DNA of 64,000 nucleotides. It comes from Burkholderiales bacterium (GTDB lineage Bacteria; Pseudomonadota; Gammaproteobacteria; Burkholderiales; SG8-39). The notes beneath the pieces are model-generated. The model saw only the letters and a list, made by a program, of their open reading frames with translations, had not been told where the DNA came from and searched no databases. Below are positions 7,692-63,138 of the stretch, one piece after another. Both the position numbers and the translations under genes were made by a program. Within the stretch, counting starts at the first letter, position 1. Every line of letters starts with the position of its first letter. The DNA is taken from positions 36,025 through 100,024 of the forward strand of contig JBBRAI010000001.1 of assembly GCA_038206915.1 (NCBI GenBank). The letters are read 5' to 3'.

Positions 7692-8099
7692 TCAGCGACG
7701 CTCGGGGCGGCGCCGTTCGCCGCGACCCTGCCGCATCGGACGGTAGATATCCTTGCCCGCATCCTGTATGTCGCGGCGCAGCTGGTGGCGCTGCTCCGGG
7801 CTCATGCGGTCGCGCTCGGTTTCGTTCGTACCGCGCATTCCGCGCTGCGGCACACCTTGTTGCGCCTCTCCCTGCGGATCCGGCCTGGGACGCTGGTCCT
7901 GTGCAGGCTCCCGCCCGAAGGGCGCCGCGGCGGCCGGACCGGCGAGTCCGGCAGCGGCAATTCCGCAGAACAATGCCACGAGCGCGCCTGCGCGCAGGGC
8001 CACGAGCGCGCCTGCACGCAGCGAGCGCAGCGCCTTTGCGCGCCGGCCGGTGGTGAAGGTCGCTCGGGTTTTGCTTGCGGCAGCGGGAAGTAATTTCAT
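7692..8099 (-). CDS. hypothetical exported Arg/Pro/Gln-rich protein
   Basis: Start trimmed to MKLLPAAASK.. It has a hydrophobic signal/anchor and a low-complexity charged C-terminus (MSPEQRHQLRRDIQDAGKDIY). It sits upstream of ompR. The function and exact start are uncertain. Confidence 0.45.
   Translation of the reverse strand: MKLLPAAASKTRATFTTGRRAKALRSLRAGALVALRAGALVALFCGIAAAGLAGPAAAAPFGREPAQDQRPRPDPQGEAQQGVPQRGMRGTNETERDRMSPEQRHQLRRDIQDAGKDIYRPMRQGRGERRRPERR
7975..8022. repeat. 24-bp tandem duplication (2 units, 2 mismatches), in frame in the signal/anchor region
   Basis: gccacgagcgcgcctgcgcgcagg / gccacgagcgcgcctgcacgcagc encodes LRAGALVA twice on the minus strand. Confidence 0.9.
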
Positions 8100-37290: not shown

Positions 37291-38703
37291 TCAATCCCCG
37301 CTGTGGCGTTCGATGTAGGCCTTGACCGCCCCGGCGTCGGCGTCCATGAGTTCGAAGCGCTGCGGCAGCGACTCCAGTTTTTCGCAGCCCGGGGGATAAT
37401 CCGGATCGCGTCCCAGCGCTTCGCGGATGGTCGCGGCGAATTTCACCGGCAAGGCTGTTTCCAGGCACACCAGCGGCACGCCCGCCGGGCGCTGCTCCAG
37501 CCCGACCTTGAGCCCGTCGGCGGTATGGGTATCGATCATCACGCCGTAGTCGCGGTACACGCGGCGTATGGTATCCAGCCGGTCGGCATGCGAGCTCGAG
37601 CCGGAGACGAAGCCATACTCCTTGATTTTCGCGAAATAGGGCGTGGCGGACAGGTCGAACGCGCCTTCGGCATCGAGCCTGCGCCATAGCTCCTTCACCT
37701 GCGCCGCATCGCGTCCGACCAGATCGTATATGAAACGCTCGAAATTGGACGCTTTCGAAATGTCCATCGACGGGCTGGACGTCTGCACCACCGCCGACGC
37801 GGGGCGCACGCGATACATGCCGGTGCGGAAAAATTCGTCCAGCACCTTGTTTTCGTTAGTCGCGAGTATCAGTCGTGCGACGGGAAGTCCCATCATACGC
37901 GCGATGTGCCCGGCGCAGATATTGCCGAAATTGCCGCTGGGCACCGAGAACGCGACTTGCTCGTCGTCCGAGCGTGTCGCGGCGAAATAGCCGCGAAAGT
38001 AATACACCACCTGCGCCGCAACGCGCGCCCAGTTGATCGAATTCACCGCGCCTATATGATGGCGCGCCTTGAACGCTGCATCGTTGCTGACCGCCTTGAC
38101 GATGTCCTGGCACTCGTCGAACACGCCGCGGATGGCGATGTTAAAAATATTCGCGTCCTGCAGCGAAAACATCTGCGCCACCTGGAACGGGCTCATTTTT
38201 TCGTGCGGCGACAGCATAAACACGTTTACGCCGCGCTTGCCGCGCATCGCGTATTCGGCCGAGGACCCGGTGTCGCCCGAAGTCGCGCCGAGGATGTTGA
38301 TGTGCTCGCCGCGCCTGGCGAGCACGTACTCGAACAGGTTGCCGAGCAGCTGCATCGCCATGTCCTTGAACGCGAGCGTCGGCCCCTCCGACAGGCCGAG
38401 CAGGTGCAACCCCGGCGCCAGCGTCTTCAGCGGCGCGATCGCCTCGCTGCGGAACGCCGCCTTGGTGTAGGTGCGCGCGCACAGGCCGCGCAAGTCATCC
38501 GCCGGGACGTCGTCGCAGAACTTGCGCAGCACTTCGAAAGCGAGATCGGCGTATGGCAGGCCGCGCCAGGCGGCCAGCTCGGCCGGGCTGACGCGCGGAT
38601 AGCGCTCGGGCATCGCCAGGCCGCCGTCCGGACACAGGCCGGCAAGCATGATCTCGGTGAAGGGCTGCGGCTGCATGCCGCCGCGGGTGCTCAGGTAGCG
38701 CAT
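37291..38703 (-). CDS. thrC: threonine synthase
   Basis: 470 aa, MRYLSTRGG.., PLP-Lys region GPTLAFKDMAMQ. Confidence 0.95.
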   Translation of the reverse strand: MRYLSTRGGMQPQPFTEIMLAGLCPDGGLAMPERYPRVSPAELAAWRGLPYADLAFEVLRKFCDDVPADDLRGLCARTYTKAAFRSEAIAPLKTLAPGLHLLGLSEGPTLAFKDMAMQLLGNLFEYVLARRGEHINILGATSGDTGSSAEYAMRGKRGVNVFMLSPHEKMSPFQVAQMFSLQDANIFNIAIRGVFDECQDIVKAVSNDAAFKARHHIGAVNSINWARVAAQVVYYFRGYFAATRSDDEQVAFSVPSGNFGNICAGHIARMMGLPVARLILATNENKVLDEFFRTGMYRVRPASAVVQTSSPSMDISKASNFERFIYDLVGRDAAQVKELWRRLDAEGAFDLSATPYFAKIKEYGFVSGSSSHADRLDTIRRVYRDYGVMIDTHTADGLKVGLEQRPAGVPLVCLETALPVKFAATIREALGRDPDYPPGCEKLESLPQRFELMDADAGAVKAYIERHSGD

Positions 38704-38711
38704 GAGGATTT

Positions 38712-38948
38712 GGGACAGTCCGTTTGCGCGCTTCGCGCGCCAACCGTGTTTCCAGTACGGATAAAAAGCATCCGTACTGGAAACACGGTTACGGTTAAAG
38801 TACGGTCGGCGTGGGTCTCAATACAAGATCGTCGATTTCGCGCGGATGGCTTTTTCATCCGTGCGGAATCGACGATCCGCGCGGACGGGTTTGTGTCCGC
38901 GCAAAATCGCAACTCTGCAACAACGGCGGGCACAAATAAAGTCGCCAT
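38712..38948 (+). repeat. multi-hairpin intergenic repeat element, full copy 1 (between hom and thrC)
   Basis: Modules: GCGCGC-N3-GCGCGC (38726-38740). A 21-bp perfect hairpin (38742-38762/38770-38790, loop aaaaagc). A 22-bp hairpin with 2 G.U pairs (38827-38848/38856-38877, loop gcttttt). An 8-bp hairpin (38879-38886/38895-38902). Collinear with 48544-48775. Confidence 0.85.
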
Positions 38949-38973
38949 CATGAACTTTCATTAGATCGAAGCT

Positions 38974-40290
38974 TCAATTCCGCCCCAGCGCTTCCAGTCG
39001 GATGCGCGTGACCTTGCCCGTCACGACCGCGAGCTTTTCCATGCCCGCGATCGCCTTGTTGATCTGCTTCTCGCGCGTCTGGTGGGTGAGCATGATAATG
39101 TCCGCCTGCTCCTCGCCCTCGGAAGGCTCCTTCTGCACCATCGCGTCGATCGACACCTCGTGGTCGGCGAGGATACGCGTGATGTCGGCGAGCACGCCCG
39201 GCCGGTCCACGACGCGCATGCGCAGGTAGTAGGAGGTGACCACCTCCTCCATCGGCAGCATCGGGATGTCGGAGAGTTGGTCCGGCTGGAACGCGAGGTG
39301 CGGCACGCGGTGCTCCGGGTCGGCCGTATGCATGCGCGTCACGTCGACCAGGTCGGCCACCACCGCGCTCGCGGTCGGCTCCGCGCCCGCCCCCGCGCCG
39401 TAGTACAGCGTCGCGCCGACCGCGTCGCCTTTCACCAGTATCGCGTTCATCACGCCCTCGACATTGGCGATCAGGCGCCGCACCGGGACCAGCGTCGGGT
39501 GCACGCGCAGCTCGATGCCTTCGGGCGTCCGGCGCGTGATGCCGAGCAGCTTGATGCGATAGCCGAGCTGCTCGGCGTAGCGTATGTCCTCCTGCGTCAG
39601 CGCAGAGATGCCCTCCGTATAGGCCTTGTCCAGCTGCATCGGCACGCCGAACGCGATCGCAGACATGATGGTGAGCTTGTGCGCCGCGTCGATGCCCTCG
39701 ATGTCAAAGCTCGGATCCGCTTCGGCATAGCCCAGGCGCTGCGCTTGCTTCAGCACCGTATCGAACGGCAGGCCCTTGTCGCGCATTTCCGACAGGATGA
39801 AATTCGAGGTGCCGTTGATAATGCCGGCGATCCATTCGATGCGGTTCGCGGTGAGGCCCTCGCGCAGCGCCTTGATGATCGGGATGCCGCCCGCCACCGC
39901 GCCTTCGAACGCGACCATGACGCCCTTTTCCTGCGCCGCGGCGAATATTTCGTTGCCGTGCGTCGCCAGCAGCGCCTTGTTGGCGGTGACCACATGCTTG
40001 CCGTTGGCGATCGCCTGCAGCACCAGCTTGAGCGCGATGCCGCAGCCGCCGATCAGCTCGACCACGATGTCGATATCCGGATCGTTCACCACTTCCCAGG
40101 CATCGGCGGTGAGCGCGGCTTTGTCGCCAACCAGCTGCTGCGCGCGCGCGAGGTCCTGGTCGGCAACCTTGGTGATGCGGATGCCGCGGCCCGCGCGGCG
40201 CTGGATTTCCTCCTGGTTGCGCGCGAGCACGTTCCAGGTGCCCCCACCCACCGTCCCGACGCCAAGCAGTCCTACGCTAATCGGGTTCAT
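38974..40290 (-). CDS. hom: homoserine dehydrogenase
   Basis: 438 aa, GLLGVGTVGGG Rossmann motif, C-terminal ACT domain. Confidence 0.95.
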   Translation of the reverse strand: MNPISVGLLGVGTVGGGTWNVLARNQEEIQRRAGRGIRITKVADQDLARAQQLVGDKAALTADAWEVVNDPDIDIVVELIGGCGIALKLVLQAIANGKHVVTANKALLATHGNEIFAAAQEKGVMVAFEGAVAGGIPIIKALREGLTANRIEWIAGIINGTSNFILSEMRDKGLPFDTVLKQAQRLGYAEADPSFDIEGIDAAHKLTIMSAIAFGVPMQLDKAYTEGISALTQEDIRYAEQLGYRIKLLGITRRTPEGIELRVHPTLVPVRRLIANVEGVMNAILVKGDAVGATLYYGAGAGAEPTASAVVADLVDVTRMHTADPEHRVPHLAFQPDQLSDIPMLPMEEVVTSYYLRMRVVDRPGVLADITRILADHEVSIDAMVQKEPSEGEEQADIIMLTHQTREKQINKAIAGMEKLAVVTGKVTRIRLEALGRN

Positions 40291-46554: not shown

Positions 46555-47466
46555 ATGACTACGGCCGTCGTCTTCGCCTATCACGACGTAGGCGTACGCT
46601 GCCTGTCGGTGCTGCTCGCGCAAGGGGTGAAGGTCGCGCTGGTGCTGACCCACGAAGACAAACCGGGCGAGAACATCTGGTTCGGCAGCGTTGCGGCGCT
46701 CGCGCGCGAGCACTCCCTTGCGGTGATCACGCCGGAGAACCCGAACGCCCCGGCGGTGGTCGCGCGGATTAAGGCGCTGGCGCCCGATTTCCTGTTTTCC
46801 TTCTACTACCGCAGCATGCTCGGGCCTGACCTGCTCGACCTGCCGCGGCGCGGCGCCTACAACATGCACGGCTCGCTGCTGCCGAAATACCGCGGACGCG
46901 TGCCGGTCAACTGGGCGGTGATCAGGGGCGAGCGCGAAACCGGCGCCAGCCTGCACGAAATGGTGGCGAAACCCGACGCCGGCGGCATCGTCGACCAGCA
47001 GGCCGTGTCCATAGGCCCGGACGACGCCGCCGCCGAGGTATTCGCCAGGGTCGCCGCGGCCGCCGAGCAGGTGCTCGCGCGCGCGCTGCCGGGCCTGATT
47101 GCGGGCAGCGCGCAGATCAAGGCGCAGGACCTGAGCCAGGGCAGCTACTACGGCGGGCGCAAGCCCGAGGACGGCCGCATCGACTGGAGCCGCAGCGCGC
47201 AGGAGGTGCACAACCTGGTGCGCGGCGTGGCCCCGCCCTATCCGGGCGCATTTACCCGCGCCGACGGCCTGGGCTTGCGCATCCTGCGCACCCGCCTGGA
47301 GCCAAATAGGCGCCCGCGCAGCGGTGCACCTGGGTTATATTTCGAGGCAGGCGCGTTCTTCGCCGACTGCGGCGACGGCAAGGTGCTGCGGATACTGGAA
47401 CTCGAAGCGCAGGACGGCACGCTCGATCCTGCAGCGTTTGCCACAAAGACAACCACTCTCGCGTGA
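46555..47466 (+). CDS. arnA: UDP-L-Ara4N formyltransferase (ArnA N-terminal-domain homolog, stand-alone)
   Basis: 303 aa, NMHGSLLPKYRGRVPVNWA formyltransferase motif. Confidence 0.85.
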   Translation: MTTAVVFAYHDVGVRCLSVLLAQGVKVALVLTHEDKPGENIWFGSVAALAREHSLAVITPENPNAPAVVARIKALAPDFLFSFYYRSMLGPDLLDLPRRGAYNMHGSLLPKYRGRVPVNWAVIRGERETGASLHEMVAKPDAGGIVDQQAVSIGPDDAAAEVFARVAAAAEQVLARALPGLIAGSAQIKAQDLSQGSYYGGRKPEDGRIDWSRSAQEVHNLVRGVAPPYPGAFTRADGLGLRILRTRLEPNRRPRSGAPGLYFEAGAFFADCGDGKVLRILELEAQDGTLDPAAFATKTTTLA

Positions 47467-47470
47467 TCAC

Positions 47471-48514
47471 ATGAAAAAAATCCTGATACTCGGCGTCAAC
47501 GGCTTCATCGGCCACCATCTGTCCAAGCGCATCATCGCCAAGACCGACTGGGAGGTCTACGGCATGGACATGCAGACGGAACGCATCTCCGACCTGCTGA
47601 AGGAGAAACGCTTCAGTTTCTTCGAGGGCGACATCACCATCAACAAGGAGTGGATCGAATACCACGTGCGCAAGTGCGACACCGTGCTCCCGCTGGTGGC
47701 GATCGCCACGCCGGCGACCTACGTAAAAGAGCCGCTCAAGGTATTCGAACTCGACTTCGAGGCCAATCTGCCCATCATCCGCTCGGCGGTGAAGTACAAG
47801 AAGCGCGTGGTATTCCCTTCCACCTCCGAGGTCTACGGCATGTGCCGCGACGCGGAATTCGATCCGCACGCCTCCGAACTCGTGCTTGGCCCCATCAACA
47901 AGCCACGCTGGATCTATTCTTGCGCCAAACAGCTGATGGACCGCGTGATCCACGCCTACGGCATGCAGGAAGGCCTGGACTACACGCTGTTCCGGCCGTT
48001 CAACTGGATCGGCGCCGGCCTGGATTCGATCCGAACCCCGAAGGAAGGCAGTTCGCGCGTCATCACCCAGTTTCTCGGCCACATAGTGCGCGGCGAGAAC
48101 ATCAAACTGGTCGACGGCGGCGGCCAGAAGCGCGCCTTCACCTACATCGACGACGGCATCGACGCGCTGCTCAAGATCATTGACAATCCGGGCGGCATCG
48201 CGAGCGGACAAATCTACAACATCGGCAACCCGAAGAACAACTACTCGGTGAAGGAACTGGCCGAGATGATGCTGAAACTGGCGCTCGAATACCCCGAGTA
48301 CCGCAGCCATGCGAAGAAAGTAAAGCTGGTCAAGACCAGTTCCGCACAGTACTACGGCAAGGGTTACCAGGACGTGCAGAACCGGGTGCCGAAAATCACC
48401 AATACCTGCGAGGACCTGAACTGGCGGCCCCGGGTCAACATGCAGCAGGCGATGAAGCACATATTCGACTTCTATCGCGGCCATGTCGCCGAAGCGCGCA
48501 ACCTCGTAGATTGA
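47471..48514 (+). CDS. arnA: UDP-glucuronate dehydrogenase/decarboxylase (ArnA C-terminal-domain homolog, stand-alone)
   Basis: Start at ATG 47471. ILILGVNGFIGHHL Rossmann motif, PSTSEVYG, YSCAKQ (YxxxK). Confidence 0.85.
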   Translation: MKKILILGVNGFIGHHLSKRIIAKTDWEVYGMDMQTERISDLLKEKRFSFFEGDITINKEWIEYHVRKCDTVLPLVAIATPATYVKEPLKVFELDFEANLPIIRSAVKYKKRVVFPSTSEVYGMCRDAEFDPHASELVLGPINKPRWIYSCAKQLMDRVIHAYGMQEGLDYTLFRPFNWIGAGLDSIRTPKEGSSRVITQFLGHIVRGENIKLVDGGGQKRAFTYIDDGIDALLKIIDNPGGIASGQIYNIGNPKNNYSVKELAEMMLKLALEYPEYRSHAKKVKLVKTSSAQYYGKGYQDVQNRVPKITNTCEDLNWRPRVNMQQAMKHIFDFYRGHVAEARNLVD

Positions 48515-48543
48515 AGCACAGCAAACACTGTCGCATGCCACCA

Positions 48544-48775
48544 ATGGACTTGCGCGCTGCGCGCGCCAACCGCGATTTCTGTACGGATAAAAAGCATCCG
48601 TACAGAAATCGCGGTTACGGCTAACAGCAAGTCCAGTGTGGGGTCGTTATACGAGATCGTCGATTGCGCGCGGATGGCTTTTTCATCCGTGCGCAATCGA
48701 CGATCCGCGCGGACGGCTTTTCGTCCGCGCAAAATCAAAACCCTGCAATAACGCGTACGCGATTTGAGTCGCCAC
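48544..48775 (+). repeat. multi-hairpin intergenic repeat element, full copy 2 (between arnA-DH and arnD)
   Basis: Same module order as copy 1. GCGCGC-N3-GCGCGC (48552-48566). 21-bp perfect hairpin (48568-48588/48596-48616). 22-bp hairpin (48655-48676/48684-48705). 8-bp hairpin (48707-48714/48723-48730). Confidence 0.85.
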
Positions 48776-48793
48776 GTATAGACATTGATCCCC

Positions 48794-49702
48794 GTGAAGC
48801 TCGCCCTAAAAATCGACGTCGACACCTATCGCGGCACGCGCGTTGGCGTGCCGCGACTGATTGACGCGCTGAAAAAGCACCAGGCCGGCGCGACCTTCCT
48901 GTTCAGCCTCGGACCGGACCACACCGGCCGGGCGGTCACGCGCGCCCTGCGCCCGGGCTTCATGAAGAAAGTGTCGCGCACCTCGGTGCTGGAGCATTAC
49001 GGACTCAAGACCCTGTTATACGGCACCCTGCTTCCGGGCCCGGACATAGGCAAGCGCTGCGCCGACACCCTGCGCGCCGTGCGCGACACGGGCTTCGAAG
49101 TCGGCATCCATACCTGGGACCACGTCAAATGGCAGGACAAGGTCGCGCAGCGCGGCGAGCGCTGGACCGGCGATCAAATGGGCGCCGCCTACCTGCGCTT
49201 TTCGGAGATCTTCGGCGAATCTGCGCGCACCCATGGCGCCGCCGGCTGGCAGATGAACCTGCACGCGCTGCGCCTGACGCAGCGCCTTGGATTCGACTAT
49301 TGTTCGGACACGCGCGGCAGCTGTCCCTTCATCCCCATCTATCGCGGCGAGATCGTCGCCTGCCCGCAGCTGCCGACCACCCTGCCGACGCTGGACGAAT
49401 TGATCGGCCTGGACGGACTGACCGCGGACAATGTGGCCGCGCACCTGCTCAAGCTGTCGGAAAATCCGCCGCCCACCGGCCACGTGTACACGCTGCATGC
49501 TGAGCTCGAAGGCATGAAACTGATGCCGGTATTCGAAGCCCTGCTCGAGGGCTGGCGCGCCATGGGCTATGAGCTGGTGCGCGTGCGCGATCTGTTCGAT
49601 ACGCTCAAGCTAAATGATCTGCCGCGCCACGAGGTGCGCATGGGCGAAATTCCCGGCAGGTCCGGCACGCTGGCGCTGCAGGGGAAGGAATTCCTGACAT
49701 GA
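48794..49702 (+). CDS. arnD: 4-deoxy-4-formamido-L-arabinose-phosphoundecaprenol deformylase (polysaccharide deacetylase family)
   Basis: (M)KLALKIDVDTYRGTRVGVPRL.. is collinear with the recalled E. coli ArnD N-terminus MTKVGLRIDVDTFRGT. GTG 48794 is preferred, with TTG 48785 as the alternative. No clear SD for either. Confidence 0.8.
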   Translation: MKLALKIDVDTYRGTRVGVPRLIDALKKHQAGATFLFSLGPDHTGRAVTRALRPGFMKKVSRTSVLEHYGLKTLLYGTLLPGPDIGKRCADTLRAVRDTGFEVGIHTWDHVKWQDKVAQRGERWTGDQMGAAYLRFSEIFGESARTHGAAGWQMNLHALRLTQRLGFDYCSDTRGSCPFIPIYRGEIVACPQLPTTLPTLDELIGLDGLTADNVAAHLLKLSENPPPTGHVYTLHAELEGMKLMPVFEALLEGWRAMGYELVRVRDLFDTLKLNDLPRHEVRMGEIPGRSGTLALQGKEFLT

Positions 49703-52892: not shown

Positions 52893-55511
52893 GTGAGTGC
52901 TGGTGTCCTGTGGTTGGACGAGGTCGGGGCGACTGACGGCCAGCTTGTCGGCGGCAAGGCTGCGAATCTCGGTGAACTTCTGCGCATAGGCTTCCCGGTT
53001 CCCAACGGATTTGTCGTTTCCGCAGACGCCTACTCGCGCTTCTACCAAAGCCTCGGACTGCAGGCCAACCTGGCTCGCGACGCATCCGCGACCGAAATCG
53101 CGCAGGAATGCGCAGCCATTCGCAGCACTATAGAAGGCGCAGATCTGACGCCGGAACTCGCTGACGCGATCCTTAGCGCGCACGCCACGCTGGTGGCGGG
53201 CCATGCGCGCAAGGTCCTATGCGCAGTGCGAAGTTCCGCGACAGCGGAAGATCTGGGCGCGGCAAGCTTCGCCGGACAGCATGGTACCTACTACTACGTC
53301 GACCGCGAAAACCTGCTCACAAAAGTGAAGCAGTGCTGGGCCTCGCTGTGGAGTCCGGAAGCCGCATCCTACCGGGCGACACATGGAATCGACGATGCAT
53401 CGGTTTCGATGGCGGTCGTGGTGCAGGAGATGATCCCCTCTGAAATTGCCGGAGTTGCGTTTACCGCGAACCCGGTCACTGGTGCCCGTGATGAGGTGGT
53501 CATCGAGTCGAGCTGGGGCATGGGTGCTGCGATCGTGGACGGACGCGTCACGCCCGATCACTACGTTGTCGCTCGAGATGGCCTGAAATTGCGCGACAAG
53601 CGCATCGCCGAGAAGCGGCTGATGGTGTCAGCGCACCTCGAGCCCGGTCAACATGCCCGGCTCGAACAGGTGCCGAATGAAATGCGGCTCAAGGAAGCGC
53701 TTCCGCCGGGCATGGTCGACACGATCGTGGAGTGGTCGCTGAAATCCGAGGCCCATTTTGGCAAACCACAGGACGTTGAATGGGCCGTCTGCGAAGGCCG
53801 GTTCTATATTCTTCAATCGCGACCGGTCACGGTCATGGGGCGCGAAGAGATTGGCGCCGGACTCAGTGGCAAGCATGTATTGTTCAAGCCGATATTCGAG
53901 AACTTCACCGATCCCCTGACACCGCTCACGCAAGATCTGTTCGAGGTCTACCCGATGCTGAGCATGCGCTTCGTTCGCGGCTGGCTATATATGGATATAA
54001 GTCACCTGCGGCGCCTGTTGCCATTCAAGGTCAGCGACCAGGATCTTGCCGAACGCATGTACTCGGTCTCGAAGGAGCCGCCCGACTGGCCACTTTCCTT
54101 GGCCAAACTACCCGCATCTCTGCTTGCCGGCTTCGTGTTCTATCTCACGGCTGCGGTTCTGTTCGCGCGGTCGAATTCGCTGCCGGATGATGCCCTGGAC
54201 AGCCATCGCGCGACCTGCCGCAGAATGGCACAGAACGAATCCGTTTCGGCAGAAGACACACTACCGCGCTTATGGATGTTACCTCGCCTGTTCGCACCGG
54301 TTGCCGACCTGCCGCTGCTGCTGAATCTGGCGTCATTTCGCTTTACGCTGTGGATGGGCATTCTGCGCCGATTAGTGCGGCGCTGGGCGCCAGAGATCCG
54401 ATCGGATGCGGAAACCTTGCTCGGATCCGGCACCGATGGCGTGCTTTCCGCGGAGATGGGTCGTGGGATCTGGGCTCTCGCGCAGGAAGCGCGAAGAAGC
54501 GCGCGCGTTCGCGAAATATTTCTCAAGCAACGACCCGAGCAGACTCTTATGACTTTGAAGCGAGAGCCCGAGGCGCGCATTTTTCTTGCCCGGCTCGATC
54601 AGTTCCTGGCAATCAATGGCCATCGCGCAATCAAAGAGTTCGAATTGCGCTCGGTGCGCTGGGAGGAGGATCCATCAGTCGTGCTGGGCATGGTCCGCAA
54701 TTACGTGCTGGTCGAGGCGGAACCTGTGGTGCATGAGAAAAAGGCCGCAGAAGCGCGTACCGAATTTCTGCGCGAATTGAAGGCGGCGCTGATGAAACTC
54801 CCATTCGAATCCGCTCTGGGATTCCGGCTGCGCATGATCCGCCATGCGGCGGAACGAGTCAGGTACTTCATGAAGCTTCGCGAGAACACCCGCTTCTACC
54901 ACATCATGGGCCCCGGTACGGTGCGCAAGAAGGTGCTTAAGATCGAAGCCGAACTCATGCGCGACGGCAAGCTCAAGTGCAAGGACGACATTTTCTACAT
55001 GCGCTTTCCGGAAATTGCGGCATTGCAGTCAGGCGCTCTCAAATGGCTGGACGTCGAAGACAAAATCCGCGAACGACGCATCGAGCACATCCGGCTGTCG
55101 AAAATGGGACCGCCCAAGACGATCGGAATTGAACTCAAGGGCAAATCGGCCGCGCCCGACCTTGCCGTGGACGTTTCGCAACTGCGGGGCCAGCCTGCAT
55201 CGCCCGGCCGCTTCGAGGGCAATGCGCGGGTGATTCTGGATCCTTCCATCGACGCGAGTATCGAACCCGGTGAAATTTTGATTGCTCCGTATACCGATCC
55301 GGCGTGGACGCCGTTGTTTCTCACCGCAGGCGCGGCAGTGGTCGAAGTCGGGAGCTATCTTTCGCACGCGGGGACGGTGGCCAGGGAATTCGGCATGCCA
55401 TGCGTGGTGGATGTTCCCGGCGCGACCTTGAAAATCCACACTGGAGACCGCATTTCCGTCGATGGAGAACGCGGATCTGTTCGCGTTCTTTCAGGAGGCG
55501 CCGCCACATGA
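52893..55511 (+). CDS. PEP-utilizing kinase of the rifampin phosphotransferase (RPH) architecture
   Basis: 872 aa, GTG start. N-terminal PPDK_N ATP-grasp (VGGKAANLGEL, VRSSATAEDL..SFAGQH, DVEWAV..FYILQSRPVT). C-terminal swivel His domain (APYTDPAWTPLFLTAGAAVVEVGSYLSHAGTVAREFGMPCVV). Also collinear with the recalled Listeria RPH in the central domain. Confidence 0.8.
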   Translation: MSAGVLWLDEVGATDGQLVGGKAANLGELLRIGFPVPNGFVVSADAYSRFYQSLGLQANLARDASATEIAQECAAIRSTIEGADLTPELADAILSAHATLVAGHARKVLCAVRSSATAEDLGAASFAGQHGTYYYVDRENLLTKVKQCWASLWSPEAASYRATHGIDDASVSMAVVVQEMIPSEIAGVAFTANPVTGARDEVVIESSWGMGAAIVDGRVTPDHYVVARDGLKLRDKRIAEKRLMVSAHLEPGQHARLEQVPNEMRLKEALPPGMVDTIVEWSLKSEAHFGKPQDVEWAVCEGRFYILQSRPVTVMGREEIGAGLSGKHVLFKPIFENFTDPLTPLTQDLFEVYPMLSMRFVRGWLYMDISHLRRLLPFKVSDQDLAERMYSVSKEPPDWPLSLAKLPASLLAGFVFYLTAAVLFARSNSLPDDALDSHRATCRRMAQNESVSAEDTLPRLWMLPRLFAPVADLPLLLNLASFRFTLWMGILRRLVRRWAPEIRSDAETLLGSGTDGVLSAEMGRGIWALAQEARRSARVREIFLKQRPEQTLMTLKREPEARIFLARLDQFLAINGHRAIKEFELRSVRWEEDPSVVLGMVRNYVLVEAEPVVHEKKAAEARTEFLRELKAALMKLPFESALGFRLRMIRHAAERVRYFMKLRENTRFYHIMGPGTVRKKVLKIEAELMRDGKLKCKDDIFYMRFPEIAALQSGALKWLDVEDKIRERRIEHIRLSKMGPPKTIGIELKGKSAAPDLAVDVSQLRGQPASPGRFEGNARVILDPSIDASIEPGEILIAPYTDPAWTPLFLTAGAAVVEVGSYLSHAGTVAREFGMPCVVDVPGATLKIHTGDRISVDGERGSVRVLSGGAAT

Positions 55512-56027: not shown

Positions 56028-56585
56028 TTGAGGCCATTCAACGCGAATCAGGAAAGCCCCGGTCACGTATGGTTCATGCGCATCGCGTCGCTGGCCGCGA
56101 TATTTGCCGTCCTCGCAGCGATCGGCTTCTTCCTGCGCCGAGGTGATACCCTGTATGCCATCTTCATGTTGGCGGCGGTTCCGGTCGTTGCAGGCCTGCT
56201 TGCGTGGACCTGGACCGGATCGCTGTTCACGTCGCTGGAATGGGCAAAGCGGTATGTCCAGGGTGCGGAAGGCGCGCATCGACATGAGTGGTATTCATTC
56301 AAAAGCCAGCGCGTGCGCGTGTTTCTCGACGATGCGCGGCAACCCTGGTTCCCGGTAATCGAAATTGCTTTCATCCTGGATATCAAAGTCGAAAAGAACA
56401 CATTCCGCCATTACGGGTCGGATCAGTATGGAATCCCCGATTCCGCGTCCGAACCCTGTCTATCCGAAACCGGGCTGCGACGCCTGATCAAATACAGCAC
56501 CCACCCCGACGCGGGCGCACTGCACAACTGGCTTGAGCGCGAGGTATTGCGCATGCTGAGAAACAGGAGAGAGCGTCAGGTCTGA
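56028..56585 (+). CDS. membrane-anchored protein with a Bro-N/KilA-N-like domain
   Basis: TTG start with AAGGA 6 nt upstream (alternative ATG 56076). Two N-terminal TM helices, then WYSFKSQRVRVFLDDARQPWFPVIEIAFILDI...LSETGLRRLIKYSTHPDAGALHNWLEREVL, which resembles the Bro-N pattern (F.F....VRV...G.PWF.A.D....L). Confidence 0.55.
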   Translation: MRPFNANQESPGHVWFMRIASLAAIFAVLAAIGFFLRRGDTLYAIFMLAAVPVVAGLLAWTWTGSLFTSLEWAKRYVQGAEGAHRHEWYSFKSQRVRVFLDDARQPWFPVIEIAFILDIKVEKNTFRHYGSDQYGIPDSASEPCLSETGLRRLIKYSTHPDAGALHNWLEREVLRMLRNRRERQV

Positions 56586-56741: not shown

Positions 56742-58130
56742 TCAATATCGGCCCGGGTCCGCGTAATTTTCGAAGCGCGTGTACTCGCCGATGAAGGTCA
56801 GGTTCAGCGTGCCGATCGGGCCGTTGCGCTGCTTGCCGATGATGATCTCGGCCTTGCCCTTGTCGGCTGACTCGGGGTTGTAGACCTCGTCGCGATAGAT
56901 GAACAGGATCAGGTCTGCGTCCTGCTCGATCGCGCCCGATTCGCGCAGATCGGACATCACCGGGCGCTTGTTCGGGCGCTGCTCCAGGCCGCGATTGAGC
57001 TGCGACAGCGCGACCACCGGCACATGCAGCTCCTTTGCCAGCGCCTTGAGCGAGCGCGAGATCTCGGAAATCTCGGTAGCGCGATTCTCGCCGGAGGAGG
57101 TGGAGGACATCAGCTGCAGGTAGTCGACCACCACCAGGCCGAGGCCGTCGTACTGGCGGTGCATGCGGCGCGCGCGCGCGCGCAGCTCAAGGCAGTTCAG
57201 CGCCGGCGTTTCGTCGATGTGGATGGGCGCATCGTGCACCTTGCCCACCGCGTCGGTCAGGCGGCTCCAGTCCTCGTCGGTCAGGCGCCCGGTGCGCAGC
57301 TTCATCTGGTCCAGCCGGCCTATGGAGCCGAGCATGCGCATGGCAAGCTGCGAGCCCGCCATTTCCATGCTGAACACTGCCACCGGCAGGCGGTCGTTCA
57401 CCGACACGTGCTCGGCGATATTGAGCGCGAACGCGGTCTTGCCCATGCTCGGCCGTCCGGCGACGATGATCAGGTCGCCCTGCTGCAGCCCCGAGGTCTT
57501 CTGGTCGAGATCGTGGAAGCCGGTCGCGAGCCCGGTTATGTCCGAAGGATTGTCGCGGTGATAGAGCATGTCGATGCGCTCCATCACCTGCGCCAGGATA
57601 GGCTGGATTTCGACCAGGCCCTGGCGTCCGCGCGCCCCCGCCTCGGCGATCTCGAACACGCGCGACTCGGCCTCGTCGAGCAATTTTGCCACTTCCTTGC
57701 CCATCGGATTAAGGGCGGAGTCGGCGATGCCGGTGCCGACTTCTATCAGTCTCCTCTGGATCGCGCGCTCGCGCACGATCTCGGCGTAGCGCCGGATGTT
57801 GTGCGCCGAGGGCGTGTTCTGCGCCAGCGCGCCGAGATACGCAAGCCCGCCGGTCTTGTCCTTGTCCTCGCTTTGCTCGATCGACTCGAACACCGTGACC
57901 ATATCGGCCGGCCGGTTCTTCTCCATCAGCTTGCCGATGTGGCGGAAGATGCGGCGGTGATCGTCGCGATAGAAATTGCTCTCCGCGAGGATGTCGGCGA
58001 CGCGCTCCCAGGCCTGGTTGTCGAGCAGCAGACCGCCCAGCACCGACTGCTCCGCCTCGATCGAATGCGGCGGCACGCGCAGCTGCGCGAGCTGCGGGTC
58101 GTTCACGGATTGAGGGATTGCCTGCGCCAT
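56742..58130 (-). CDS. dnaB: replicative DNA helicase
   Basis: Start trimmed to MAQAIPQS.. PPHSIEAEQSVLGGLL, Walker A GRPSMGKTAFALNIA. Confidence 0.95.
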   Translation of the reverse strand: MAQAIPQSVNDPQLAQLRVPPHSIEAEQSVLGGLLLDNQAWERVADILAESNFYRDDHRRIFRHIGKLMEKNRPADMVTVFESIEQSEDKDKTGGLAYLGALAQNTPSAHNIRRYAEIVRERAIQRRLIEVGTGIADSALNPMGKEVAKLLDEAESRVFEIAEAGARGRQGLVEIQPILAQVMERIDMLYHRDNPSDITGLATGFHDLDQKTSGLQQGDLIIVAGRPSMGKTAFALNIAEHVSVNDRLPVAVFSMEMAGSQLAMRMLGSIGRLDQMKLRTGRLTDEDWSRLTDAVGKVHDAPIHIDETPALNCLELRARARRMHRQYDGLGLVVVDYLQLMSSTSSGENRATEISEISRSLKALAKELHVPVVALSQLNRGLEQRPNKRPVMSDLRESGAIEQDADLILFIYRDEVYNPESADKGKAEIIIGKQRNGPIGTLNLTFIGEYTRFENYADPGRY

Positions 58131-58187
58131 GGGGTGCACTCTGCGGGAGTGCAAATTCTACTCCAAGATGTTCCTGTTTTTATCCAT

Positions 58188-58255
58188 AACCGTGTTTTTG
58201 GTGCGGATACGCTTTTCATCCGCGCCAAAAAACGCGGTTGGCGCGCAGAGCGCGC
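58188..58255 (-). repeat. partial, inverted copy 3 of the multi-hairpin repeat (hairpin-1 module plus GCGCGC-N3-GCGCGC)
   Basis: aaccgtgtttttggtgcggat / atccgcgccaaaaaacgcggtt (58188-58208/58218-58239, 2 G.U pairs plus 1 bulge), followed by gcgcgcagagcgcgc (58241-58255). The reverse complement aligns with the first ~70 nt of copies 1 and 2. Confidence 0.65.
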
Positions 58256-58272
58256 AATCGGCGATCTTGAAT

Positions 58273-58301
58273 AAAAAAAGGCCGGAACCCCGGCCTTTTT
58301 T
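58273..58301. terminator. bidirectional Rho-independent terminator after rplI
   Basis: A7-GGCCGG-aacc-CCGGCC-T6, located 17 nt downstream of the rplI stop. Confidence 0.8.
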
Positions 58302-58317
58302 AATCAACAGCTTGAAG

Positions 58318-58773
58318 CTATTCGGCTGCTTCGCCGAGCACCGAAACGGTGATGTGCACCACTACGTCCGAGTGCAGGCCGATGGCGATCGAATTGTCGC
58401 CGATCTGCTTCAGCGGCCCCTCGGGCAGCCTGACATGGGAACGCTCCACGGCAAAGCCCTGTGCCTCCAGCGCCTCTACGATGTCATGCGTGGTGACCGA
58501 GCCGAACAGGCGCCCGTCCACGCCGGTCTTGCGCGTGATCTGGACCGTGAGGCCGTCGACCTTGGCGCCCAGTTCCTGCGCCTTGGCCAGCGCCTCGTTC
58601 TGCGCCTTTTCCAGATCGCCGCGGCGCGCTTCGAAAGCGGCGAGGTTTTCCGGCGTGGCGCGCTTGGCCTTGCCGTGCGGGATCAGGAAATTGCGGGCGT
58701 AACCCTCCTTCACCTTGACCACTTCGCCGAGGCCGCCGAGATTGACCACTTTTTCCAGCAGTATTACTTGCAT
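58318..58773 (-). CDS. rplI: 50S ribosomal protein L9
   Basis: Start trimmed to [32 protein letters not shown]. Confidence 0.95.
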
Positions 58774-58825
58774 GGTGATACTCCTAAGAACCCGTAACAA
58801 TAGTCATTTTGTTACGGCTGATATA

Positions 58826-63051: not shown

Positions 63052-63138
63052 GCCCAGGTGGCGGAATTGGTAGACGCACATGGTTCAGGTCCATGCGGTG
63101 GAGACACTGTGGGGGTTCGAGTCCCTTCCTGGGCACCA
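63052..63138 (+). tRNA. tRNA-Leu (anticodon CAG), class II with long variable arm, encoded CCA
   Basis: Hand fold: acceptor GCCCAGG/CCTGGGC. Anticodon stem CATGG/CCATG with loop TTCAGGT. T-arm GGGGG-TTCGAGT-CCCTT (two G.U pairs). 3' ACCA. Confidence 0.85.

Follow-up and report, generated by a model that had tools for sequence, protein, structure and literature searches.

What fills the puzzling gaps of 160-270 bp that interrupt certain operons of some uncultured Burkholderiales? The question is raised by a 64-kb stretch of a Burkholderiales genome (contig JBBRAI010000001.1, positions 36,025 to 100,024; by the window we mean this whole stretch), in which the hom-thrC operon and an arn-like operon carry 270 bp of very stable predicted hairpins between cistrons. 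An earlier note, made from the letters of the window alone, had proposed that these gaps hold two full copies (38712-38948 and 48544-48775) and one partial inverted copy (58188-58255) of a repeat composed of several hairpins, and all three are indeed present there. The comparisons presented here indicate that they probably belong to a non-autonomous, mosaic, palindromic repeat family in the intergenic DNA of an uncultured lineage of Burkholderiales, similar in kind to the bacterial interspersed mosaic elements (BIMEs) built from repetitive extragenic palindromes (REPs), to the REP doublets known as REPINs, and to MITEs (miniature inverted-repeat transposable elements). Copies are gained at and lost from intergenic sites, and different species retain them at orthologous positions; the copies keep out of coding sequence and of promoter-side (divergent) regions, and their stems stay paired despite sequence drift.

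The family was surveyed with two pattern scans. The first, through species-representative genomes, used the GCGCGC box motif TTGCGCGCTNNGCGCGCCAACCG and returned at least 113 loci, all of them in 21 metagenome-assembled genome (MAG) assemblies, while the second, through metagenome contigs, used only the pattern of the third hairpin, with no box required, and returned at least 120 loci. Copies were counted in these loci (at least 233, numbered with an L below; ~1.6 Mb including the window) and in the window itself. A repeat profile built from 46 full copies served for an nhmmer census over 823 kb, namely the scan-1 loci and the window, and a covariation alignment was made of 64 distinct copies, with an RNAalifold structure to which three pairs of hairpin 3 were added by hand. 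Genes in the loci come from a caller of open reading frames (ORFs) based on G+C content at third codon positions (GC3), which also recovered the known genes of the window; gene identities in the window are from Pfam, and base-level statements on the modules were compared by eye.

The proposal that the repeat forms a family is amply borne out. The nhmmer census counted at least 166 copies in the 823 kb, where exact box matches number at least 128, and the metagenome scan for hairpin 3 contributed at least 154 copies in at least 120 loci with the order of the modules unchanged, giving a total of at least ~320 copies in at least 233 loci of more than 20 species-level genomes of related uncultured Burkholderiales. 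The scan-1 assemblies, from groundwater, soil and lakes, are labelled Burkholderiales, Betaproteobacteria or Proteobacteria, with one labelled 'uncultured Enterobacteriaceae'. Several of these MAGs have stretches that are syntenic with the window and 75-90% identical to it in nucleotide sequence, which places the window in the same repeat-bearing lineage. One MAG alone contributes at least 22 loci, which, together with the three copies in 64 kb, suggests that a genome holds tens to a few hundred copies. Copies are often found at or within ~150 bp of contig ends (e.g. L012, L016, L022, L028, L037, L040, L066 and L108), as fits a repeat that breaks short-read assemblies; that the repeat is itself an assembly artefact is ruled out by its presence in many independent assemblies.

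The consensus full element is ~277 bp long (the family ranges over ~100-280 bp), has no ORF and shows a constant order of modules: L, the GCGCGC box B, hairpin 1 (H1), the spacer S, hairpin 2 (H2), hairpin 3 (H3) and R. Module L, of ~40 nt, starts with TATACGGCGTCTT and is followed by the box, TTGCGCGC-NNN-GCGCGCCAA, and by hairpin 1, which reads AACCGnGnTTnnnGnnCGGATG, a loop AAAAGC(G) and then the complement. Module S is AT-rich and in many copies takes the form of an A-tract/stem/T-tract hairpin. Hairpin 2 consists of GATCGyCGATTGyGCrCGGATG, a loop (t)GCTTTTC and the complement, and hairpin 3 of CGCGCGGACGG-loop-CGTCCGCGCAA; R, of ~50 nt, has the consensus CATCGCAACTCTGCAACAACGG..GCGATTTaAGTCGCCACGTATAG and ends in ...AAGTCGCCACGTATAG. 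Between L and the reverse complement of R there is a weak, imperfect terminal inverted repeat (TIR) of ~24 nt (TATACGGCGTC... / ...GtCGCCACGTATA, aligned as TATACG-GCGTCTTAAAT against TATACGTGGCGACTCAAAT), with a mean score of 4.9 versus 2.25 in shuffles in 29 full copies. R itself is carried by ~70 of the at least ~320 copies, some of which have no L.

At the heart of the element, hairpins 1 and 2 have in common a REP-sized apex, GYRCGGATG-loop-CATCCGYRC, placed in opposite orientation ~85 nt apart; the earlier note had rightly seen that hairpin 2 has at its apex (GGATGGCTTTTTCATCC) the reverse complement of the hairpin-1 type. This apex unit spans 25-27 nt within whole hairpins of ~50 nt with 21-22-bp stems, and by a by-eye count the two apices are identical at ~22 of 25 consensus positions; the sequences of the outer stems are unrelated. 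The modules also occur in other combinations. The half-elements B-H1-S and S-H2-H3 are found alone, tandem arrays are frequent (e.g. S-H2-H3, ~20 nt, B-H1-S), and one MAG has alternative L and R modules. Even orthologous sites differ in arrangement: the arnA/arnD site is occupied in L004 and L028 too, but there by S-H2-H3 followed by B-H1-S, and the rplI/dnaB sites of L011, L034, L081 and L113 carry copies that mostly read S-H2-H3 and then B-H1(-S).

Within the window, copy 1 lies on the + strand at 38713/38724-38947, since nhmmer aligns 38713-38946 with profile positions 30-269 (E = 1.8e-64) and the BLAST pile-up of family members has sharp edges at 38724 and 38947. It is made up of the box (38724-38743; TTGCGCGC-TTC-GCGCGCCAA, a 6-bp GC hairpin with a 3-nt loop), hairpin 1 (38742-38790; 21-bp stem, loop AAAAAGC, covarying columns 19-43 with 53-75), the variable spacer S (38791-38826), hairpin 2 (38827-38877; a stem of ~22 bp below the reverse-complementary apex, covarying columns 125-145 with 157-177), the sequence-conserved hairpin 3 (38878-38904; CGCGCGGACGG..GTCCGCGCAA) and a degenerate right tail R (38905-38947), across which the pile-up falls off. 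Hairpin 3 had been described as an 8-bp hairpin; it exists, with 9-10 pairs in its stem. The whole hom-thrC intercistronic insert that contains copy 1 extends over 270 bp (38704-38973), and the + strand of copy 1 is antisense to the operon.

Copy 2 (48516/48522-48783, + strand) is a full-length L-B-H1-S-H2-H3-R unit in the 270-bp gap between the ArnA-like and ArnD-like genes and is sense to the arn-like operon. Its modules are L (~48522-48549), B (48550-48569), H1 (48568-48616), S (48617-48654), H2 (48655-48705), H3 (48706-48732) and R (48733-48783). With nhmmer aligning 48516-48778 to profile positions 7-274 (E = 2.1e-74) and the pile-up covering 48522-48783, the location first given for this copy stands, and its left end moves outward from 48544. 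Copy 3 (58161-58257, - strand), within the 163-bp rplI/dnaB gap and sense to both genes, is partial: it has B (58238-58257), H1 (58188-58240) and a piece of S, together aligned by nhmmer with profile positions 41-136 (E = 5.6e-25) and also visible in the BLAST pile-up. Beside it, a junction on the - strand (58258-58304) reads AAGATCGCCGA, a fusion of the box with the initial part of the hairpin-2 left arm, and upstream of AAGATCGCCGA is the rplI terminator-like hairpin (AAAAAAGGCCGGGGTTCCGGCCTTTTTTT), which is similar to module S; the stretch 58251-58304 has a weak nhmmer match to profile positions 113-163 (E = 4.4e-4). Because relatives carry a complete H2-H3 at rplI/dnaB, we infer that this part of copy 3 was lost by deletion between two TTGCGCGC repeats.

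Profile and pattern searches found no additional copies or solitary units in the 64-kb window beyond these three. The 51-nt hairpin-2 pattern and the hairpin 3 pattern each match it twice, where none is expected (in shuffles for the former), and module S in the window copies is weakly structured and aligns poorly. Folding of the copy-1 gap, as its transcribed strand, gives -121 kcal/mol (z = -8.85), and that of copy 2 gives -149.9 kcal/mol (z = -12.2). A scan of the three copy sites returned no promoter-like sites, and the terminator-like hits there, one per region (inside copies 1 and 3), are not above shuffle expectation; an intrinsic terminator was rejected, the hairpins 1-3 of the window copies having no T-run behind them.

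That the palindromic structure itself is maintained was first proposed from copies 1 and 2, whose left arms of hairpin 1 (gtgtttccag vs gcgatttctg) differ at four positions, each matched by a complementary difference in the right arms (ctggaaacac vs cagaaatcgc), and whose hairpin 2 shows one compensated change from T.G to G-C; both hold on inspection by eye. The family as a whole extends this picture. In the 64 copies, 97.1% of stem cells hold standard pairs and two-sided changes occur at 25 of 56 pairs (217 cells), whereas slid controls pair in just 24-49% of cells and none of 500 shuffles reached any of five structure measures. The covariation is confined to the two long hairpins, whereas what is conserved in the box and hairpin 3 is their sequence. 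The invariance of the box in the 64 copies is partly a matter of ascertainment, since the box was built into the scan-1 pattern; of 25 secondary copies picked up independently of that pattern, 11 have it exactly and most others are one base off. Hairpin 3, which was no part of the scan-1 pattern, shows no two-sided change in the 64 copies, and five of its nine pairs never vary. Some stem positions are likewise invariant, namely the AACCG and GATCG feet and the CGGAT apex, while other positions cycle through three to four pair types; this combination of fixed and covarying positions is the pattern expected for a hairpin that a protein would contact at fixed positions. The same two-sided covariation is seen between orthologous copies of different species, in which the differing pairs comprise 18 compensated, one one-sided and 12 disruptive cases, and unpaired columns differ at 23%. 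Pairing has therefore been kept in place after insertion, by selection or by a conversion-like process.

The wobble pairs point to the form in which the hairpins may be read. In the genome set, hairpin 1 has 39 G.U pairs on the + strand versus 96 on the - strand, and hairpin 2 has 120 versus 39; in the metagenome set the counts are 29 versus 54 for hairpin 1 and 102 versus 43 for hairpin 2. The strand favoured in both hairpins is the one with the loop GCTTTTC. At the most variable positions, G.U outnumber A.C intermediates on this strand, as at columns 140/162 (AU 29, GU 13, GC 16, AC 2) and 130/172 (CG 25, UG 9, UA 23, CA 4). A duplex or a cruciform is disfavoured, because neither would give a strand asymmetry of wobbles, and transcription offers no explanation, because copies face both ways relative to genes. 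Most simply, the asymmetry suggests that selection acts on each unit in the form of a folded single strand, whose polarity belongs to the element itself.

Turning to where the copies reside, we found none within a gene. Of 178 classifiable copies, 61 lie between convergent genes (background 130/852) and only nine between divergent genes (119/852), an enrichment and a depletion, respectively, and copies are mostly at gene 3' ends, a preference similar to that of REP-type elements (PMC3733652). Copies 1 and 2 had been noted to face opposite ways relative to their operons, and the family does the same, with 64 sense and 44 antisense copies in tandem contexts and no significant bias (p = 0.067).

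Comparison with relatives reveals how such sites came to be occupied. The hom-thrC gap measures 270 bp in the window but 4-7 bp in L115, L116/L117 and L118, where Hom is 90-95% identical, the neighbours are alike and no repeat occurs within several kb; copy 1 is therefore a lineage-specific insertion. To judge from the short junction, hom and thrC were probably translationally coupled before the insertion, an arrangement that copy 1 would have broken. Similarly, the full-length copy L007:4229-4502 is missing from the syntenic L072, L099, L172 and L193, further pairs of full and empty sites are L232/L036, L235/L112, L134/L215 and L158/L008, and L141 is short relative to L026, L133, L173 and L219. 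Over all syntenic comparisons (flanking DNA 80-92% identical), 151 pairs are of the occupied type versus 54 shorter or empty; as most are occupied in both genomes, many insertions are old. One genome, JACQTO, has a private subfamily of 13 copies (L009, L012, L016, L032, L037, L042, L056, L058, L067, L088, L090, L108 and L109), which have a common stem CCGGGTTTTCA and ends of their own (left GACGGTCAGTCAGCCGACCGCGGCC, right a GGAAGCCAAATTTCAAATATATTTGGCTAG hairpin), some with an upstream module of ~70 nt besides; on its sequences, this subfamily looks like a recent burst. With sites empty in relatives, a private subfamily and both orientations in use, the preference of the earlier note for a mobile element acting at the DNA level over a cis-regulatory RNA is upheld.

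Its further statement that the sequence is no named family has likewise stood up to search. At gathering thresholds Rfam gave no match for the element in the whole window and three loci, and at permissive E-values copy 1 drew only miRNA-hairpin models far below threshold (39.7 bits vs 90). PLSDB plasmids gave no blastn match, IMG/VR viral contigs no hit with either the box or the hairpin 3 pattern, and a full-text literature search with four element motifs only chance matches to primers. The note had also suggested looking for a REP-associated tyrosine transposase (RAYT); a tblastn search with the E. coli RayT, a distant query, found nothing below E = 0.5 in the window and the at least 233 loci, which are genome fragments. 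The genes between the examined copy pairs are housekeeping only (Pfam). As for a parent insertion sequence (IS), TATACGGCGTCTT with up to two mismatches occurs only at element ends and at chance genic sites in the window and the first 113 loci (~820 kb). An origin as integron attC sites was rejected, because the feet of hairpin 1, CGCCAAC ... GTTAYGG, fit neither core (RYYYAAC ... GTTRRRY) and the neighbours are housekeeping genes.

We posit that the family spreads with the help of a trans-acting enzyme, for which the conserved positions (the box, the AACCG/GATCG feet, the CGGAT apex and hairpin 3) would form the recognition surface. Given that G.U-type wobbles favour opposite strands in the oppositely oriented units, the hairpins would be read as folded single strands, probably of single-stranded DNA (ssDNA), and mobilisation by an enzyme of the HUH/Y1 type (a RAYT or an IS200/IS605-like transposase) is our preferred guess, based on this polarity and on the lack of a clear target duplication. 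Half-elements and tandem arrays probably arose by recombination or deletion between short shared motifs, and an effect on host mRNAs, such as that of stable hairpins between hom and thrC, is possible as a by-product.

Several observations weigh against this account. The element has no linked transposase of any sort, and the unpaired GTAG or CGTC tag of REPs is absent from the consensus, where CGTC is confined to L (GGCGTC) and to paired bases of the hairpin-2 stem (GATCGTCGA). No clear target-site duplication is seen at the two informative sites, whose flanks are 10-20% diverged: L232/L036 has neither a duplication nor a TA at the target, and L007 versus L072/L099 has none or an ambiguous TA. 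Nor is there a conserved target sequence at the informative junctions, the left flanks of which share at most a loose YYA. Orientation relative to local GC skew (81:62, p = 0.13) does not display the replication-strand bias of ssDNA transposons. Several of the 'empty' sites are remnants of internal deletions and not pristine, and the many old copies retained at orthologous sites fit a host function too. Finally, the copies share ancestry, so that the covariation cells and wobble counts are non-independent events.

One rival is a classical MITE of the TIR type, that is, an internally deleted IS that a DDE transposase from another locus would mobilise as double-stranded DNA, with the hairpins as mere passengers. 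The full-length copies do have imperfect ~24-nt TIRs (TATACGGCGTCTTaAAT... and ...ATTTaAGTCGCCACGTATA), the whole of L..R behaves as a single, discrete insertion (L007 vs L072/L099, L232 vs L036), the size is below 300 bp with no ORF, and the L007 junction can be read as a TA duplication. We nevertheless consider this origin unlikely: L232/L036 shows neither duplication nor TA and L007 is compatible with none, the best conservation is internal (box, apex and hairpin 3) and not at the termini, and many copies lack L, R or both, those without R being abundant and conserved nonetheless. In the stretches searched for a parent IS, none with such termini turned up, and an asymmetry of wobbles is unexpected for a mechanism acting on double-stranded DNA. 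This asymmetry also bears on the suggestion, which we regard as rather doubtful, that the elements are kept by host use, either as sites for gyrase, integration host factor (IHF) or a Pol I analogue, or as RNA hairpins that protect against 3' exonucleases, provide RNase III sites or uncouple cistrons; it tracks the polarity of the element although copies are transcribed both ways. Host use would agree with the excess of occupied-type orthologous pairs, with stems kept paired between orthologues through compensated changes, and with copies that, like REPs (PMC3733652), lie by preference at convergent sites and the 3' ends of genes; the predicted hairpins are also very stable in either transcript orientation. 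However, the relatives with 4-7 bp between hom and thrC manage without copy 1, which is dispensable there, the module arrangements differ at the orthologous arnA/arnD and rplI/dnaB sites, and the copies offer neither promoter-like sites nor terminator-like hits beyond the shuffles.

The compensated stems might also be the product of a mutational process, either template switching at quasi-palindromes or gene conversion between copies, and not of selection on structure. In E. coli, template switching is known to correct quasi-palindromes, and the arms here are nearly perfectly complementary while several stem positions vary widely; the 18 two-sided changes between orthologues versus a single one-sided change that keeps the pair are what conversion-like events give, and the rearranged modules at orthologous sites show that sequence is exchanged between copies. 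On the other side, G.U-type intermediates are common and strand-biased, which fits stepwise compensation under single-strand selection better than the copying of entire arms, and the many invariant stem positions point to a sequence-specific constraint, so that we think this process somewhat improbable as the explanation. A dedicated cis-regulatory RNA, be it a riboswitch, an attenuator or a leader of the hom-thrC, arn and rplI-dnaB operons, would likewise lie between cistrons, be highly structured and covary; it is effectively refuted by the distribution and orientation of the copies, hundreds of which sit beside unrelated housekeeping genes, most often at convergent 3' ends and in an orientation to the operon that varies among copies, with no match in Rfam and none at hom/thrC in close relatives. 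Lastly, we hold as a long shot the idea of a REPIN-like replicator with a partner other than a canonical RAYT, whose opposite apices would be read as ssDNA on opposite strands and whose outer stems would need pairing alone, with some copies domesticated by the host, for instance to uncouple or stabilise hom and thrC. On balance, we favour a mosaic palindromic repeat that spreads between intergenic sites without an enzyme of its own.

The genes around the three copies are hom (38974-40290) and thrC (37291-38703), both on the - strand; the ArnA-like epimerase/dehydratase-family gene (47324-48514) and the ArnD-like deacetylase gene (48785-49702), both on the + strand; and rplI (58318-58800) and dnaB (56742-58154), both again on the - strand. 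No Shine-Dalgarno sequence is recognisable before the ATG of thrC (…CCCAAATCCTCATG, window 38680-38703). Each foot of hairpin 2 has a conserved GATC (AAGATCG...CGATCC) at 38827-38877 and 48655-48705, as in most hairpin-2 copies. Next to dnaB, the 3.9-kb segment 52784-56741 is missing from the syntenic L011 and L034, where a repeat copy occupies the site; it includes two + strand ORFs, one of 872 aa (52893-55511; PPDK_N and PEP-utilizer domains) and one of 185 aa (56028-56585; Bro-N domain). Its G+C content is slightly lower (~0.59), and it may have come in as an island, replacing or targeting the repeat. The only Rfam match at the gathering threshold in the window is a tRNA gene (63052-63135).

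Elsewhere, mobile elements of kinds that target hairpins or repeats have entered the repeat, in keeping with the favoured reading. In L056 (2818-4417) module S of one copy is interrupted by a 1.6-kb IS, whose 498-aa transposase belongs to the IS110 family (PF01548 + PF02371) and whose 11-bp ends, TACTAAATGCA and TGCATTTACTA, are near-inverted. IS110-family elements target REP-type repeats, and this transposase was rejected as the partner of the repeat, being inserted into a copy. In L015 (~7871-7961) the 5' region of a group II intron (RF02005, group-II-D1D4-6, E = 1.3e-9) breaks hairpin 1 directly behind GTACG, and the contig ends within the intron; the position suggests that the repeat hairpin may serve as a homing site for the intron. 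Several copies (L033:~1-207, L038:5391-5915, L073:303-735 and L077:123-197) carry, directly after hairpin 1, another repeated module, CAATTAC...CAACAATTGCCAC to ...GGTTGCGGCCAnCGGCnGCGCTAAG, which is up to ~190 nt long (less in L033) and could be either a small mobile element targeting this site or an optional part of the repeat.

The repeat explains the puzzling 160-270-bp gaps inside operons of this lineage, and it counsels caution in annotation, as such regions should not be called small RNAs, riboswitches or miRNA-like hairpins. It is also a frequent break point of contigs in MAGs. For studies of how REPs and REPINs persist it offers positions that look like protein contacts adjoining freely covarying ones, an opposite wobble polarity in its two units, and clean recent insertions, such as that into the 4-7-bp hom-thrC junction. 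While it opens no new category of system, being an element of the familiar REP/BIME/MITE-like kind, the REPIN-like reading with a partner that is no canonical RAYT, if true, would supply both a new pair of element and enzyme of the REP/RAYT type and a natural data set on recognition of structure alone.

Among known systems, the repeat behaves most like BIMEs and REPINs, and the earlier note had called it REP/BIME-like. As in the RAYT-associated REPs and BIMEs of Enterobacteria and Pseudomonas, we see high-copy extragenic palindromes downstream of genes and between convergent genes, REP-sized units in alternating orientation with conserved linkers and mosaic arrays, maintained hairpins, and an IS110-family insertion into the repeat. 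REPs are short imperfect palindromes of 20-40 nt, a range into which the apex unit (25-27 nt) falls but not the whole hairpins of ~50 nt. They also bear a tag at the stem foot, an unpaired tetranucleotide GTAG or CGTC (PMC3733652). Here the tag is missing and no RAYT was found in the sampled fragments, each unit is extended to a 21-22-bp stem by a local palindrome of its own, there are additional invariant modules (the GCGCGC box and hairpin 3), the sequence bears no relation to theirs, and the carriers are uncultured Burkholderiales; the label thus holds for the appearance of the repeat and not for its membership. A REPIN is a REP doublet that forms one long hairpin (Bertels and Rainey 2011, PMC3116915). 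The present element resembles it in having two inverted REP-sized units and a spacer as one unit, in persisting vertically at orthologous sites and in its compensated changes; it differs in that the units, ~85 nt apart, fold separately as two local covarying hairpins, and in that the single-copy RAYT partner by which REPINs are defined was not found. With MITEs such as the Correia elements of Neisseria and the enterobacterial ERIC/IRU, it has in common a length of 100-300 bp without coding capacity, TIRs, an intergenic location with presence/absence polymorphism, and frequent co-transcription with neighbouring genes. Correia elements duplicate a TA target and owe their identity to their TIRs, whereas the present family has no clear duplication, many copies without termini, and its strongest conservation in internal hairpins. 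The pneumococcal BOX (boxA-boxB-boxC) likewise consists of separable modules in variable combination and number, with a stable predicted structure in intergenic DNA, but it has another sequence, belongs to another phylum, and its modules are not opposed pairs of palindromes with covarying stems. The miniature relatives of IS200/IS605, or palindrome-associated transposable elements (PATEs), which are moved by HUH/Y1 'peel and paste' enzymes, are comparable in their small size, in the apparent reading of hairpins on one strand and in having no evident duplication. IS200/IS605 elements have asymmetric ends and insert 3' of a fixed tetra- or pentanucleotide; in contrast, no conserved target, tnpA/tnpB relative or replication-strand bias was seen here. 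Closer in taxonomy is the BRE, a ~90-bp beta-proteobacterial repeat of 69% G+C, resembling a variable number tandem repeat, from the cultured genera Bordetella and of the Comamonadaceae (PMC3110155). It too is an intergenic repeat of Betaproteobacteria, sometimes tandem, sometimes transcribed and thought to be mobile, but nothing in its description matches the modules seen here, and the two are set apart by description alone. By its sequence, the repeat apparently constitutes a new and so far unnamed family, outside any named one, within the bacterial interspersed palindromic mosaic repeats, for which 'REP/BIME-like' is a description of appearance.

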